From Patescibacteria group bacterium (GTDB lineage: Bacteria; Patescibacteriota; WWE3; UBA101185; UBA10185), in assembly GCA_018825365.1 (NCBI GenBank), contig JAHJEV010000003.1, positions 317,387 to 381,386 of the forward strand: 64,000 nt of DNA. Reading direction: 5' to 3'. The translations under genes and the position numbers were made by a program. The notes under the pieces are model-generated. The model saw only the letters and a program-made list of their open reading frames with translations, did no database searches and was not told the DNA's origin. Below are positions 40,390 through 44,662 of the stretch, one piece after another. How positions within the stretch are numbered: the first letter of the stretch is position 1; each line of letters opens with the position of its first letter.

Positions 40390-40430
40390 ATTTTTCTACT
40401 CCTAAAACTTATAAACGTTGTAGTAAATTA

Positions 40431-40456
40431 TTAAAAAAAGTGGGACCGGCCCACTT
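40431..40456 (-). terminator. Rho-independent terminator-like hairpin downstream of the DGR reverse transcriptase
   Basis: On the minus strand, gcaagtgggccggtcccac forms a GC-rich hairpin followed by TTTTTTT; it lies between the RT stop (40579) and the nusA start. Confidence 0.45.
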
Positions 40457-40578
40457 GCAACAACTTTATTTCTTTACTACTTCGTTAACTTCTTACAACA
40501 ATAGGATACTATACCCTTGACAAAGCGGGGTCAACTAGCGGTATTTTGCTGACTTAGATCCTTTTTTCTTATCCGGGC

Positions 40579-41571
40579 TTATAAGTGAGATACTAACCTT
40601 GCAACCTCTTGTCGCAATCTATAAGTATTCCCATGAGAAATAAGCCCCAAATAAGATTGAGTGGTCTCCTTGTCACCGCCCTTATACACAATATTTCTAA
40701 ACATCCGCCTTTTAGTAGATGTCCTTAAAATTCTGCGATCGGGAAAGTGCACCCAACCGAGAAAGTCAATCCCAGACGCTACTGTTCTTAGCAGAGTTTT
40801 GTCTTCGTGAAGTTCCAAACGAAGGATTTCCCATAGAAATTCTTTGATCATGGGTAAAAGTCCTGCAAGTTCATTCTTATCGTGTGACATAAAAACAAAA
40901 TCATCTGCATAACGGAGATAAAACTTTACTTTCAAAACATGCTTAACGAATATATCAAATTTATTCATATAAATATTTGCAAAAAGCTGAGATGTGAGAT
41001 TTCCCAAAGGAATGCCTTTATTACCACCCGGGTCAAAACTATTAATAACCTCAGAAAGAACCCAAATAAGATTGTCATCTAAAATCGACTCTCTAAGCAT
41101 GCCAATAAGAATATCGTGGTCTATCGATGCAAAAAACTTCTTTATGTCACACTTTAGAACCCAGACGGTTTTTGTATTATTTTTTGAAACCTTAAAAGAA
41201 AACTTACAAAATCTATTAAGTGCGGCATGTAAACCTTTATCTATGCGACAGGAATAAGAATCAGCTATAAATTTTCTATCAAAGAATAGATAAAGTGTTC
41301 TATACAAAGCGTGGTGAAATAATCTATCCCTAACGGTAGCTTTATGAATAACTCTTGGCTTTGGATCGGAGATTTTAAATACCGTATATTTTGAGTGCTT
41401 ATAACTTTTGGTTTCCAAATCTTCATGTAGCTGAAGTATGTTTCCCATTAAGTTGCGTTCAAAAACCTGTACATCTTTTCTTGAACGCTTGCCATTCCTA
41501 AATTCCTTCCAAGCGACAAGAAGATTATCAAGAGAAATGATATCCTGATATTTATGAGTGAATTTAATCAT
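40579..41571 (-). CDS. Diversity-generating retroelement (DGR) reverse transcriptase
   Basis: 330 aa; RT motifs 1-2 (RVIHKATVRDRLFHHALYRTL, SYSCRIDKGLHAAL), the DGR-specific motif-4 variant LGNLTSQLFANIYMNKFD ([ILV]GxxxSQ rather than the group II QGxxxSP), and YLRYADDFVFMSHD; no maturase or endonuclease domains; adjacent TR/VR pair. Confidence 0.85.
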   Translation of the reverse strand: MIKFTHKYQDIISLDNLLVAWKEFRNGKRSRKDVQVFERNLMGNILQLHEDLETKSYKHSKYTVFKISDPKPRVIHKATVRDRLFHHALYRTLYLFFDRKFIADSYSCRIDKGLHAALNRFCKFSFKVSKNNTKTVWVLKCDIKKFFASIDHDILIGMLRESILDDNLIWVLSEVINSFDPGGNKGIPLGNLTSQLFANIYMNKFDIFVKHVLKVKFYLRYADDFVFMSHDKNELAGLLPMIKEFLWEILRLELHEDKTLLRTVASGIDFLGWVHFPDRRILRTSTKRRMFRNIVYKGGDKETTQSYLGLISHGNTYRLRQEVARLVSHL

Positions 41572-41657
41572 AAGTACATTACCCCCCCCCAGTCCAGCCC
41601 TCGTCTAAAAGTAACACGAATCTGTTACCGATAATAAAGCATGCTAAAGACATCTAT

Positions 41658-41978
41658 TTGGTGTGGTTTGGATATTTTCAAAAGCTTCCCAAAATACATA
41701 GGTATACTCTTGGACTCAGAATTGATAATTTGTTTGTAGAAATTATCGAAAACCTATCTTCCGCAAGCTTTTCAAAATCCTTAGAAAAACAAGACTTTAT
41801 AAATCTAACAATAAGAAAAAATGATACATTAAAAATTCTTGTGATGGTTCTTTGGGAGACAAAATCCATTGATGACAAAAAATATATTCTCCTGTCTGAA
41901 CAGTTGGATAAAATAGGTAAAATGCTCGGTGGCTGGATGTTACATTTGCAAAAACAAAACTCTCCCGGCAAAAGCTAG
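41658..41978 (+). CDS. avd: Avd-like accessory variability determinant (four-helix-bundle / 23S-IVS protein family), encoded antisense to RT and target
   Basis: 106 aa from a TTG start; the C-terminus LSEQLDKIGKMLGGWMLHLQKQ resembles the Avd/IVS family C-terminal helix (recalled BPP-1 Avd ...AEVGRILGSWIARVNRK); it lies between the TR and the RT. Confidence 0.6.
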   Translation: MVWFGYFQKLPKIHRYTLGLRIDNLFVEIIENLSSASFSKSLEKQDFINLTIRKNDTLKILVMVLWETKSIDDKKYILLSEQLDKIGKMLGGWMLHLQKQNSPGKS

Positions 41979-41997
41979 GAGAGAAATGAGAGGACTG

Positions 41998-42123
41998 GCG
42001 ACGAACAAAAACGAAGCGGTTGTTAGCATTCCAGAAGTTGTCGGGCTTACCATAGTAAGCGTAAAGCCAACGATCATCGTCATTGCGCTTGACGTCGAAT
42101 AGGTTCAGATCACCATCGGAGTC
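41998..42123 (-). repeat. DGR template repeat (TR), 126 nt, intergenic
   Basis: Identical to 42479..42604 at 114/126 positions (offset 481). On the coding (minus) strand the TR carries A at 11 of the 12 mismatch positions. In the VR reading frame the TR reads DSDGDLNLFDVKRNDDDRWLYAYYGKPDNFWNANNRFVFVRR, rich in AAC/AAT codons. Confidence 0.85.
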
Positions 42124-42356
42124 GTTACGTACAAAGTACCTTCTATACCACCACTTTTTGATTGCTCTTAAAGTTGAATCTTATTTGTGAACTAAATTCC
42201 CCCGGTACTCTGCACCAAGTATCCTCATTTTTTAAAGTTTAATACACCACTCTAACTTAAACCGTAATTTAAATTATTCCGGGTGTACGGACACTGGATT
42301 CGGTAGCAAAAACCTTAGTTGTTTGCGTATTCACCTAATACCAGTCTTATTTTAAC

Positions 42357-42403
42357 AAAAAAACTCCGTGCTTTGGTATAGAAAACCCAAAAACACGGAG
42401 TTT
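42357..42403 (-). terminator. Hairpin plus T-run downstream of the DGR target gene; either a terminator or a DGR-associated stem-loop
   Basis: Minus strand: stem aaactccgtg / cacggagttt with an inner tttgg/ccaaa pairing, followed by TTTTTTT; about 70 nt 3' of the target stop codon and between the VR and the TR. Confidence 0.4.
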
Positions 42404-42472
42404 GAAAGAGAAAGCTCAAAGTACAAAGACCAAAAGTTCAAGATCCAAGTGACCTAAGTTCAAAGAGCCAAA

Positions 42473-42973
42473 TTACTTGCGACGAACAAAAACGAAGCGG
42501 TAGCTAGCACTCCAGAAGCTGTCGGGCCCACCATCGCAAGCGTAAAGCCAACGATCATCGTCATAGCGCCTGACGCCGAATAGGTACAGATCACCATCGG
42601 AGTCTTTGATAGGCTTCATGGCAAAGATTAGAACCTCTCCCGGTTTCAGATCGTCGCCACGCTGCAGCAGATACTGTGCGGCTGCTTCATCCGGACACAA
42701 ATCCCAATCTTTTTCGCCGCCGGCTCTGTAGATGTCTCTTAACTCCGTACCGCGTGAAAATCCCAGCTCTTCAACAGAGGCATCCACTAAATCCAAGGTT
42801 TGTCTGGATTTGGTTACCTTTATCTTGCTGAGAATGTCTTCCGCCCAACCTGAAATCCATACACCGGATTCCTCCAAAGCCCTTCTCAGGGACTTTGCAT
42901 CCTTGTAAGTGCCAATTTCAACGATCCCAAGGGTATTCATGACTCCATCCTTTCTTTGCCTTAATCTAGGCAT
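42473..42973 (-). CDS. DGR target (variable) protein; small, no signal peptide, C-terminal VR
   Basis: 166 aa; the last ~42 residues (DSDGDLYLFGVRRYDDDRWLYACDGGPDSFWSASYRFVFVRRK) are encoded by the VR; the gene is visibly more G+C-rich than its neighbours. Confidence 0.8.
   Translation of the reverse strand: MPRLRQRKDGVMNTLGIVEIGTYKDAKSLRRALEESGVWISGWAEDILSKIKVTKSRQTLDLVDASVEELGFSRGTELRDIYRAGGEKDWDLCPDEAAAQYLLQRGDDLKPGEVLIFAMKPIKDSDGDLYLFGVRRYDDDRWLYACDGGPDSFWSASYRFVFVRRK
42479..42604 (-). repeat. DGR variable repeat (VR), ending 3 nt before the target stop codon
   Basis: Cognate of the TR 41998..42123. Mismatches (TR>VR, plus strand) at TR 42021 t>a, 42023 t>c, 42029 t>c, 42038 t>c, 42047 t>c, 42048 t>c, 42054 a>c, 42056 t>c, 42084 t>a, 42089 t>c, 42095 t>c, 42105 t>a. 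Confidence 0.85.
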
Positions 42974-43046
42974 AACAGTGGATAAGTGCCGTCATTATAC
43001 TATAGGTGGGTTAATATGGCAATGGGGATTTTTTCCTCTTGGGACT

Positions 43047-43970
43047 TTATTCCTCAAGATACTTTTCCAGTAACTCCCTTTGTTTTTTGTTTAATCTTTC
43101 GGGTATTTTCACCAGTATCTGAACAATAACGTTACCCTGTCCCCTACCGTGAATCTTGGGCATTCCTTTTCCTCTTATTTGAAATCGAGCCCCGTATTGA
43201 GTCCCTCCAGGTATTTTAAGCTTCGCCCTTCCGACACCACTTTCAACCGATGTATCAACAACAGGAACCTCAAGTACAATCCCTAAAGCAGCATCTACCA
43301 TTTTTATTTCTTTTGAAACCAAAACATCATCCCCCATAATTACGAAATCTGGCACATTTCTAAGTCTCAAGGTTAAAAATAAATCACCACTTGGAGCCCC
43401 CTGAGGACCCGGCATTCCTTTTCCGGCAAACTTTATTTCCATCCCATCTCTCATTCCTGCGGGGATTTTCACTTTTACTTTTCCGCTTTCAACATTTATT
43501 TCTTTTTCAACACCAAAAATTGCATCCTTAAAATCTATATGCATTTCGTAATAAAGGTTTTTGCCTTTTCTTGGGCGTCTTGAAGAAAATCCCCTAAACC
43601 CAAAAGCTTCTTCAAAAATGTCAAATGGATTAAAATCAGATCCCATGTCAAATGGGTTTCCGCCTGAGGATGAGTATGTGTATGTAAATGGTCCCCACTG
43701 GCCGCGATTAGCTCCAGAGAATCCTTCCGGACCAAATCCCGGACCAGAAGTGCCAAACTGATCGTACATATTTCTCTTTTGGGGGTCACTTAATACTTGG
43801 TAAGCTTCGTTTATTTCCTTAAATCTTTTCTCTGCGGAGGCTTTGTCACTTTCTTTGACCATATCCGGGTGGTGCTCTCTTGCGAGTCTTCTATATGCCT
43901 TTTTTATGTCCTCTGCTGAGGCATTTTTGGCCACTCCTAATATTTCGTAGTAATTTTTTGCCGTTGTCAT
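43047..43970 (-). CDS. DnaJ-class co-chaperone, type II/CbpA-like (J-domain, G/F region, no zinc finger)
   Basis: 307 aa; J-domain YYEILGVAKNASAEDIKKAYRRLAREHHPD; Gly/Phe-rich linker; C-terminal substrate-binding domains; no CxxCxGxG repeats. Confidence 0.8.
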   Translation of the reverse strand: MTTAKNYYEILGVAKNASAEDIKKAYRRLAREHHPDMVKESDKASAEKRFKEINEAYQVLSDPQKRNMYDQFGTSGPGFGPEGFSGANRGQWGPFTYTYSSSGGNPFDMGSDFNPFDIFEEAFGFRGFSSRRPRKGKNLYYEMHIDFKDAIFGVEKEINVESGKVKVKIPAGMRDGMEIKFAGKGMPGPQGAPSGDLFLTLRLRNVPDFVIMGDDVLVSKEIKMVDAALGIVLEVPVVDTSVESGVGRAKLKIPGGTQYGARFQIRGKGMPKIHGRGQGNVIVQILVKIPERLNKKQRELLEKYLEE

Positions 43971-43989: not shown

Positions 43990-44662
43990 TATTAAATACT
44001 CAGGAAATGACGTCCTCCCCGCATTGCACATGAGTACATGTTTATACGGGGTTTCCTTTGCTCTGCAACTCATGATAACAAGGAAGTGGCATCTTCTCCA
44101 AGGTCTTGTTTGCCTTGGTATGCTATGTACTTAAGTATCTTCTCCTCGTTTAAGCCTACGGTTGAAACATAGTACCCTATACCCCATATCCCACTTTTCT
44201 CACCAAAGATTCTGTCGATGAATTTAAAGTGCTTTCTTAAATCCTTGCTTGTCTGTATCTTTATTTTCTGAACAACCTCGGCTACAGAGTATTTGGGTGG
44301 TATCTCAATTAGCATATGTATATGATCAATGTTTGTATTGATCTTATGTATATACCAAGTGGGATATGTTCTTTGAAGTTTATGGATTGATTTTATCAAC
44401 TCAACTAAAACGTAGTTTTTAAGTATCTTTCTTCTATACTTTACTCCCCATACCAAGTGATACTGTATCTCATACACACTATGACTTAACATCCTTGTTC
44501 TCATGTTTACAGCATATCACTTCATGATATGCCCATTCGTCCATGCATTGCGTTCGCAATTCCTATCCCCTCGCTCACTTATGCATGGTTTCCTGTATGG
44601 AAACAACGAAAGATCCCCGTATAAAACGGGGATCTTTGACTGTACAAGTCTTGTACACTTCA
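43990..44662 (-). mobile_element. IS200/IS605-family insertion sequence (tnpA-only) with subterminal hairpins; boundaries approximate
   Basis: Y1 transposase ORF flanked by same-strand imperfect palindromes: gatccccgtataaaacggggatc (44612..44634), tgtacaagtcttgtaca (44641..44657), ggtttcctgtatggaaac on the 5' side, and ccccgcattgcacatgagtacatgtttatacgggg (44017..44051) on the 3' side. It fills the entire dnaJ-like/hup intergenic space. Confidence 0.65.
44070..44504 (-). CDS. tnpA: IS200-like Y1 (HuH) transposase TnpA
   Basis: 144 aa; HuH motif DHIHMLIEIPP and a catalytic-Tyr region KILKYIAYQ; size and sequence typical of IS200/IS605 TnpA. Confidence 0.85.
   Translation of the reverse strand: MRTRMLSHSVYEIQYHLVWGVKYRRKILKNYVLVELIKSIHKLQRTYPTWYIHKINTNIDHIHMLIEIPPKYSVAEVVQKIKIQTSKDLRKHFKFIDRIFGEKSGIWGIGYYVSTVGLNEEKILKYIAYQGKQDLGEDATSLLS

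Follow-up and report, generated by a model that had tools for sequence, protein, structure and literature searches.

The window analysed here, a 64,000-nt stretch of a Patescibacteria group bacterium genome (GenBank assembly GCA_018825365.1, contig JAHJEV010000003.1, positions 317,387 to 381,386), carries a diversity-generating retroelement (DGR) in which the gene avd lies on the strand opposite to the other components. The minus strand holds the target gene (42473-42973, 166 aa) with the variable repeat (VR) at its 3′ end, the template repeat (TR; 41994-42126) and the reverse transcriptase (RT) gene (40579-41571, 330 aa), and avd is encoded on the plus strand between the TR and the RT gene. 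The VR (42475-42607) is a 133-nt direct repeat of the TR, 89% identical to it, which covers the last ~44 codons of the target open reading frame (ORF) and ends at its stop codon; the two repeats are 481 nt apart and lie within 600 nt of the RT gene. Eleven of the 14 mismatches between them fall at adenines of the minus strand, which is the sense strand of the TR, and the other three are one T-to-G difference and two C at the repeat edges. The T-to-G difference is internal (T in the TR, 42045 region; G in the VR, 42526; alignment column 82) and adjoins an A-to-G change. The last 21 nt of the TR (CGCTTCGTTTTTGTTCGTCGC) are free of A and identical in the VR, forming by sequence a segment like the initiation of mutagenic homing element. 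The RT matches RVT_1 (74.9 bits) and has a YADD motif, and the palm motif of DGR type, (I/L)GxxxSQ, was read in its translation as LGNLTSQ (LGNLTSQLFANIY); in NCBIfam the RT gave only sub-threshold group II and retron matches. The element was thus recognized as a DGR by an RT gene beside a TR/VR pair, adenine-biased differences, a VR at the 3′ end of the target and the RT motif. The target ORF itself had no family match in Pfam or NCBIfam.

From the avd stop codon to the TR the distance is 16 nt, and from the start of the ORF as called to the RT start codon it is 86 nt. The initial annotation had described this avd as antisense to the TR, the RT and the target, which the strands of the RT gene, TR, VR and target ORF, all minus, confirm, and it had taken the arrangement as a departure from the DGR norm, which the relatives contradict. 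RT relatives were confirmed in 557 cases in genome contigs, and the layout was compared across 80 genome loci with RT relatives (56-83% identity) and 51 metagenome loci with Avd relatives, the latter found by a protein-guided scan; an exact-pattern scan of contigs for the avd/RT junction gave no matches. In all 124 sequences holding both genes (123 loci and the window), avd was opposite to and head-to-head with the RT gene, and none was co-oriented. Similarly, tblastn placed Avd on the strand opposite to the RT in 74/74 genome loci with upstream sequence. Note that in the five loci with an RT and without an Avd match, 14-118 nt of the fetched sequence lie beyond the start of the RT match, leaving little or no upstream sequence. 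A TR with A-specific mismatches on the RT-sense strand ended 0-40 nt from the avd stop codon in 58 of the 62 loci with enough flank, and in those loci the VR partner lay ~430-540 nt further upstream of the TR.

This layout has been described previously. Wu et al. (2018; NAR 46:11, PMC5758913) defined an architecture B3, ‘TR-(avd)-RT’, where parentheses denote the reverse strand, which accounts for 90% of the DGRs of the candidate phyla radiation (CPR) in a set derived mainly from Paul et al. (2017). The window has a TR, a reverse-strand avd and an RT gene with no other accessory gene, as in the B3 definition, and it shares with the CPR B3 DGRs the order, the strands and the host group, with no architectural difference; a target without a recognisable domain, as found here, is also typical of them. 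An opposite-strand avd between the TR and the RT gene is therefore the published standard layout of CPR and not an anomaly. The comparison with the DGR of the Bordetella phage BPP-1, which had served as the benchmark in the initial annotation, holds in that the window differs from the BPP-1 (B1) layout; the difference concerns B1 only. The reverse-strand avd matters little in itself, being an already known CPR norm. Taken together, we regard the window as very probably an ordinary Patescibacteria (CPR) DGR of the B3 architecture with a genuine reverse-strand avd gene.

The plus-strand ORF called at 41658-41978 encodes 106 aa from a TTG start and ends in ...LSEQLDKIGKMLGGWMLHLQKQNSPGKS. Profile hidden Markov models (HMMs) were run against the ORFs of both strands. 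The plus-strand ORF matched the Pfam family PF22296 bAvd (40.4 bits, cutoff 40, E 4.6e-10) and the NCBIfam model NF033474 DivGenRetAVD (56.6 bits, E 2.6e-15, the equivalog cutoff of 80 not being reached), and the minus-strand ORF over the same interval matched neither, in line with the initial view that the only Avd-like ORF between the TR and the RT gene is on the plus strand. The NCBI record identical to the 106-aa protein is named ‘four helix bundle protein [Patescibacteria group bacterium]’. A search for Avd homologues returned 665 at E<=1e-3, with PF22296 on all 120 among the matches listed.

The fold agrees with this assignment. The 119-aa translation of 41619-41975 was modelled as a monomer with AlphaFold2, giving a mean pLDDT (predicted local distance difference test) of 93.4 and helices at residues 3-20, 31-50, 54-80 and 86-114. 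In Foldseek, the model superposed on the BPP-1 Avd chain 4dwl_C with template modelling (TM) scores of 0.83/0.89 and a root mean square deviation of 1.5 Å over 112 columns, and also on the Avd chains of the DGR ribonucleoprotein 8ub7, the Avd chains of 4dwl and 8ub7 together giving TM 0.8-0.89. The best structural matches were the S23 proteins 2gsc and 2rld (TM 0.80-0.89), which belong to the 23S rRNA intervening-sequence (IVS) or ‘S23 ribosomal’ proteins of PF05635. These have a fold like that of the window Avd; they differ from it in that PF05635 matched Avd weakly (16.7 bits, far under the cutoff of 33.8), the DGR-specific models scored higher, and the window gene sits inside a DGR cassette. 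Furthermore, substitutions in the avd frame between the window and its close relatives were mostly at codon position 3, namely 33/48 against locus L001 and 35/53 against locus L081. Note that the third codon positions of the minus-strand ORF coincide with those of avd, so that this count cannot by itself separate the strands and conservation of the open frame was used for that purpose instead. We conclude that the plus-strand ORF is a genuine avd gene under protein-level constraint, encoding a four-helix-bundle Avd of ~118 aa. By analogy with its family, this protein would form a homopentamer that binds the RT and the DGR RNA.

The called ORF is not the whole gene. Alignments of the 106-aa protein to both PF22296 and NF033474 begin at profile position 18, and the avd frame is open upstream to 41574 (TAA stop at 41571-41573), where it encodes helix 1 (...NLLPIIKHAKDIYLVWFGYFQ); the open frame reads VHYPPPVQPSSKSNTNLLPIIKHAKDIYLVWFGYFQ. 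With this extension, NF033474 rose to 61.8 bits and aligned over profile positions 1-103 of 104, and the PF22296 scores of 40.4-41.0 bits were marginally above the cutoff. The Avd profile match begins at codon 41625, and the helix-1 pattern LLP[IVL][IL]xK.K..YL.W is shared by relatives. Thus the complete four-helix-bundle coding region is 41622-41978 on the plus strand, as supported by the HMMs, the AlphaFold2 fold and the codon-position-3 substitutions. Databases call avd from the TTG at 41658 only, a start that loses residues 1-13 of the 119-aa translation and hence most of helix 1, and this annotated start is probably too far downstream. The N-terminus had been noted as short for an Avd and as beginning at a TTG; this holds for the ORF as called and is an effect of ORF callers taking the first ATG, GTG or TTG, since helix 1 is encoded in frame upstream.

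At its other end, avd overlaps a predicted RNA structure of the opposite strand. On the minus strand, a stem-loop (41960-41983) followed by a U-run (41950-41959) begins 10 nt 3′ of the TR; the RT-sense sequence from 41983 to 41950 reads CUCUCCUAGCUUUUGCCGGGAGAG and then UUUUGUUUUU. The avd stop codon TAG (41976-41978) sits in the hairpin loop, and the codons of the Avd tail KQNSPGKS lie opposite the U-run, the 3′ arm and a portion of the loop. A search within 60 nt of the avd stop codon for a perfect stem (6 bp or longer, with three or more GC pairs) and six or more T among the 9 nt that follow it found an equivalent in 67 of 73 loci; random 105-nt segments drawn from these loci gave 13 of 437. 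The stems differ in sequence yet stay paired, for example CACACCCGCGC/GCGCGGGTGTG (L053), CCACGTGAGAT/ATCTCACGTGG (L039) and CTTCCGCC/GGCGGAAG (L026). Counts of stem pairs were dropped as evidence because the stems had been chosen as perfect and the argument would be circular; only the comparison with random segments was used. In many relatives the avd frame continues across the entire hairpin, the tail residues NSP and GEK corresponding to its two arms.

Handa et al. (bioRxiv 10.1101/2023.10.23.563531) showed that the Avd of BPP-1 binds a stem-loop formed by the 30 nt that follow the TR (Sp 3-33), and they describe putative counterparts in 207 of the 278 DGRs with an Avd, among them DGRs of CPR. 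The post-TR hairpin of the window is, by this analogy, probably the Avd-binding stem-loop. Judged from the sequence, simultaneous constraint on both strands, for an RNA hairpin and for a protein tail, would explain why the 3′ end of avd keeps the form KQNSP...GEK: RNA elements that are kept non-coding in BPP-1 must, in the B3 layout, be written antisense to avd. No mention of an overlap between the avd tail and the post-TR hairpin was found in the searchable literature.

A second hairpin separates the target gene from the TR. Located at 42356-42400 on the minus strand, ~72 nt downstream of the target stop codon, it consists of CTCCGTG...CACGGAG followed by U7, as seen in the sequence and its fold, and this hairpin of ~14 bp is the main stem of the minimum-free-energy fold of 42340-42475 (136 nt; -31.6 kcal/mol, z -2.4). 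From its sequence, it is probably an intrinsic terminator, which would keep the target mRNA apart from the transcript of the TR. If it ends the target mRNA, then the TR requires a promoter of its own, in about 42127-42355; the ~230 nt between this hairpin and the TR are non-coding and may contain the promoter or leader of the TR. An Rfam scan of 40400-43200 at E<=1 returned no family.

In the minus-strand direction, the element comprises the target with its VR, the terminator-like hairpin, a leader of ~230 nt, the TR, the opposite-strand avd and the RT gene. By analogy with the Bordetella phage DGR, the TR would be transcribed from the minus strand, and the stem-loop directly 3′ of it would be the element bound by Avd where the spacer RNA begins, antisense to the avd stop codon and C-terminal tail. 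Avd and the RT would then reverse-transcribe the TR into cDNA, with adenines as the sites of misincorporation, and the cDNA would replace the VR. Transcription of avd and of the RT gene would run in opposite directions away from their head-to-head junction, which spans ~50-90 bp and includes a C/G homopolymer. A separate transcription unit for avd, as was initially proposed, follows logically from its orientation, and Wu et al. (2018) likewise state a minimum of two transcription units for DGRs whose components are split between the strands; for the window, at least three would be implied, for the target, for the TR (with or without the RT gene) and for avd.

With the BPP-1 DGR (mtd-avd-TR-brt), the window shares a four-helix-bundle Avd, an RT motif of the IGxxxSQ type, adenine-specific TR-to-VR differences and a stem-loop directly 3′ of the TR. 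The BPP-1 RT residues I181, G182 and Q187, described as conserved active-site residues, correspond to the LGNLTSQ motif. On the other hand, the sequence identity between the two Avd proteins is ~12%, the stem-loop of the window is followed by a U-run, unlike that of BPP-1, and BPP-1 has a non-coding spacer where the window has an opposite-strand avd between the TR and the RT gene. Since avd occupies the place of the BPP-1 spacer, any spacer RNA elements of the window must be antisense to the 3′ half of avd.

Several observations weigh against the reading of the window as an ordinary B3 DGR with an intact avd. The family assignment is close to the thresholds, because even the extended protein, at 61.8 bits, stays under the 80-bit equivalog cutoff of NF033474 and PF22296 is passed by only ~1 bit. 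A profile built from the Avd alignment found no Avd among the sequences of the Protein Data Bank, the only hit being a chance sliding-clamp match (E 0.95), and the link to BPP-1 Avd therefore rests on the HMMs and the fold. There is no ATG, GTG or TTG ahead of helix 1 in the avd frame, which is open from 41574. The homologous codon is TTG in 39/92 relatives and TTA in the window (41625), and the in-frame alternatives of translation table 11 are only CTG at 41622 and ATA at 41631 and 41634. A sigma-70 consensus scan of 41300-42700 detected no promoter for avd, the TR or the RT gene; it returned one promoter-like site over the RT start codon and, for terminators, one weak hairpin in the VR, both counts lower than in shuffled sequences, so that the scan is uninformative on these promoters. 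Finally, the U-run makes the post-TR hairpin look like an intrinsic terminator, and an efficient stop there would leave an RNA without the downstream spacer that BPP-1 needs for cis-priming.

This last point leads to the alternative that we hold as a tentative possibility, namely that the post-TR hairpin is an efficient terminator, the TR RNA is short and stands alone, the RT promoter lies inside avd and priming is unlike the spacer mechanism of BPP-1. The hairpin does have the form of an intrinsic terminator, a GC-rich stem-loop directly followed by a U-run (it was missed by the terminator scan because its perfect stem leaves a loop of more than 8 nt), and stems of 6-12 bp, GC-rich and followed by 6-9 U, recur at the same place in the 67 of 73 loci mentioned above. 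Efficient termination would also remove the conflict of convergent transcription across the TR. However, BPP-1 requires ~140 nt of spacer past the Avd-binding stem-loop, and the conserved stop duplexes, which pair sequence upstream and downstream of the TR, are reported by Handa et al. also in CPR DGRs. In addition, the U-run is at the same time the antisense of conserved Lys, Gln and Asn codons of the basic Avd tail, so that protein constraint could explain it. Together with a role as the Avd-binding element, which we prefer, the terminator-like hairpin could stop or attenuate transcription of the TR before avd, which bears on the possible convergent transcription raised in the initial annotation.

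Other alternatives concern the 5′ end of avd, and here we keep to the view that the gene is genuine and its annotated start probably displaced. Among 92 loci with a C-run at the avd-RT junction, a canonical start lies just after the C tract in 52, and 30, the window included, have neither an in-frame upstream ATG nor a canonical start before Tyr13. TTG makes up 18% of the Leu codons in the avd body. It is unlikely, in our judgement, that the window avd is switched off or decaying and yields only an N-truncated, probably non-functional product from the TTG at 41658. Such a state would fit the absence of a canonical start before helix 1, an upstream ATG (41554) left out of frame by the nine-C run described below, the lack of residues 1-13 in the called ORF, and the state of the closest genome relative, L001, where helix 1 has lost 1 nt and the C-run is interrupted. 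Nevertheless, the frame is intact over 41574-41978, substitutions relative to relatives are mostly synonymous or at third positions, and the VR shows A-site differences from the TR; moreover, 30 of 92 C-run relatives are alike, which favors a systematic cause such as non-canonical initiation, slippage or phase variation over independent decay. In L001 (L001:2020-2175; RT 83% identical) the 1-nt deletion lies in the T-run of helix 1 and the interrupted C-run reads CCCCCCTCCCC; its broken N-terminal avd frame reflects either decay or an assembly error.

The junction between avd and the RT gene contains a run of nine C on the avd strand (C9; 41582-41590), the only C/G homopolymer of at least 8 in the 64-kb window (38.5% GC); read on the RT strand it is G9, with its end 10 nt short of the RT ATG. 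A C-run of at least 7 is present at the junction in 92 of 114 distinct related loci, with a mode of 10 and a range of 7-14. Directly after it, the window has a 3-nt AGT insertion relative to close relatives (41591-41593; C9 + AGT + CC), which splits a longer C tract and keeps the frame. On its other side lies an 18-nt near-palindrome, ATGAGTGAATTTAATCAT (41554-41571), that contains both the RT start codon (minus strand, 41571-41569) and a plus-strand ATG at 41554-41556. The two starts are mirror images within it, opening MIKFTH in the RT and MSEFNH in the extended Avd of relatives. The ATG at 41554 (MSEFNHKYITPP...) is one base out of the avd frame and is the antisense of the RT His-6 codon. 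As the initial annotation had suggested, a frameshift that would extend the N-terminus was looked for, and one added C in C9 would join MSEFNHKYITPPP... to the avd frame and give a protein of ~140 aa. Relatives with one more C indeed have an Avd of 137-139 aa called (MSEFNHKY...; P0004, P0005, P0011 and P0016), and in these long forms avd shares 18 nt head-to-head with the RT gene. Only 20 of the 92 C-run loci have the upstream ATG in frame, which is no more than chance (one-third if the ATG is mere antisense of RT His-6), and this ATG was therefore rejected as a universal Avd start. On the complementary strand, the G-run could simply serve the RT gene as a G-rich ribosome-binding site, with its end 10 nt ahead of the RT ATG; sites of the GGAGG type are used by some genes of the window.

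Closely related contigs differ in the length of this run. Loci L081 (C9, avd called as 105 aa) and L082 (C10, 139 aa), 5.3-kb contigs of a close relative from two Joint Genome Institute (JGI) samples (3300035659 and 3300035701), differ only at the C-run (L081:2419-2427) and in the VR, where ~20 clustered differences are found (L081:3345-3430). At the sequence level, these VR differences are direct evidence that this type of DGR is actively diversifying in nature. Two further contig pairs (L107/L108 and L113/L117) differ at the C-run only, and two (L114/L115 and L125/L126) at the C-run plus 2-3 single-nucleotide polymorphisms; the upstream ATG is in frame in the C10 member of L081/L082, L107/L108, L114/L115 and L125/L126.

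We consider it distinctly unlikely that the C-run acts as a slipped-strand contingency switch, its length setting whether full-length Avd can be made from the ATG that overlaps the RT start codon (C10 in frame; C9, C11 and C12 out of frame), by which CPR populations toggle hypermutation and of which the window carries the OFF (C9) allele. The tract resembles the poly-G/C contingency loci of Neisseria and Campylobacter in that a C/G tract, 7-14 long, lies where a gene begins and shifts of 1-2 in its length among nearly identical genomes change the frame of an upstream ATG; unlike those loci, the upstream ATG is in frame in only 20/92 cases and the tract also lies in the 5′ leader of the RT gene. 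The canonical start just past the tract in 52/92 loci also speaks against a simple switch. The length polymorphism may be homopolymer sequencing error. We found no C/G homopolymer or phase variation described at the avd-RT junction of DGRs in the searchable literature. A length-polymorphic homopolymer at the place where avd and RT expression begin would give a handle on the regulation of hypermutation in uncultivated CPR, and the homopolymer and the dual role of the 3′ end of avd are the only parts of this locus that may deserve further work.

That C9 is itself an error of homopolymer length in the assembly, the true sequence being C10 with an avd of ~140 aa that begins at ATG 41554 and overlaps with the RT start by 18 nt, appears very unlikely to us. 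C/G homopolymers are prone to sequencing error, a single added C fuses ATG 41554 to avd, and the close relatives with one more C are called at 137-139 aa, all of which would suit it. On the other hand, an in-frame ATG in 20/92 loci is at or below the one-third expected by chance, the Avd profile begins at LLPII and not at the extension, and the relatives P0018, P0030 and P0041 start at an ATG beside helix 1.

The minus-strand ORF opposite avd (41678-41971) encodes a Cys-rich product of 97 aa in the same orientation as the RT gene and the TR, and it had been noted as having no family resemblance, with which the lack of any match in Pfam or NCBIfam agrees. Of 72 loci compared, all have an open avd frame and only 23 keep the equivalent RT-sense frame open along 80% or more of avd, indicating that this ORF is a non-conserved shadow frame of avd and not a gene. 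The proposals that it is nevertheless a real gene with a fortuitous Avd similarity opposite, for which its length and orientation would speak, or that the avd orientation stems from a local inversion or misassembly, have a negligible probability and are refuted by these open-frame counts, the missing family match and the third positions shared with avd, and by the divergent orientation in 124/124 sequences from independent assemblies.

Likewise, the short ORFs (45-57 aa) that overlap the TR and VR on either strand (41929-42102, plus; 41940-42083 and 42460-42597, minus), two of which encode paralogous peptides beginning MTMIVGFTL..., are by-products of the repeat and not genes, so that for annotation purposes neither they nor the Cys-rich antisense ORF should be counted as genes. 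An equivalent of one of them is called as a 61-aa gene in both L081 and L082. The neighbours of the DGR are housekeeping genes, namely those for IF-2 (by translation) and for NusA and DnaJ (by Pfam), and an IS200-like Y1 transposase gene (44070-44504, minus strand; PF01797, 96 bits) lies 1.1 kb past the target gene, after the DnaJ gene.

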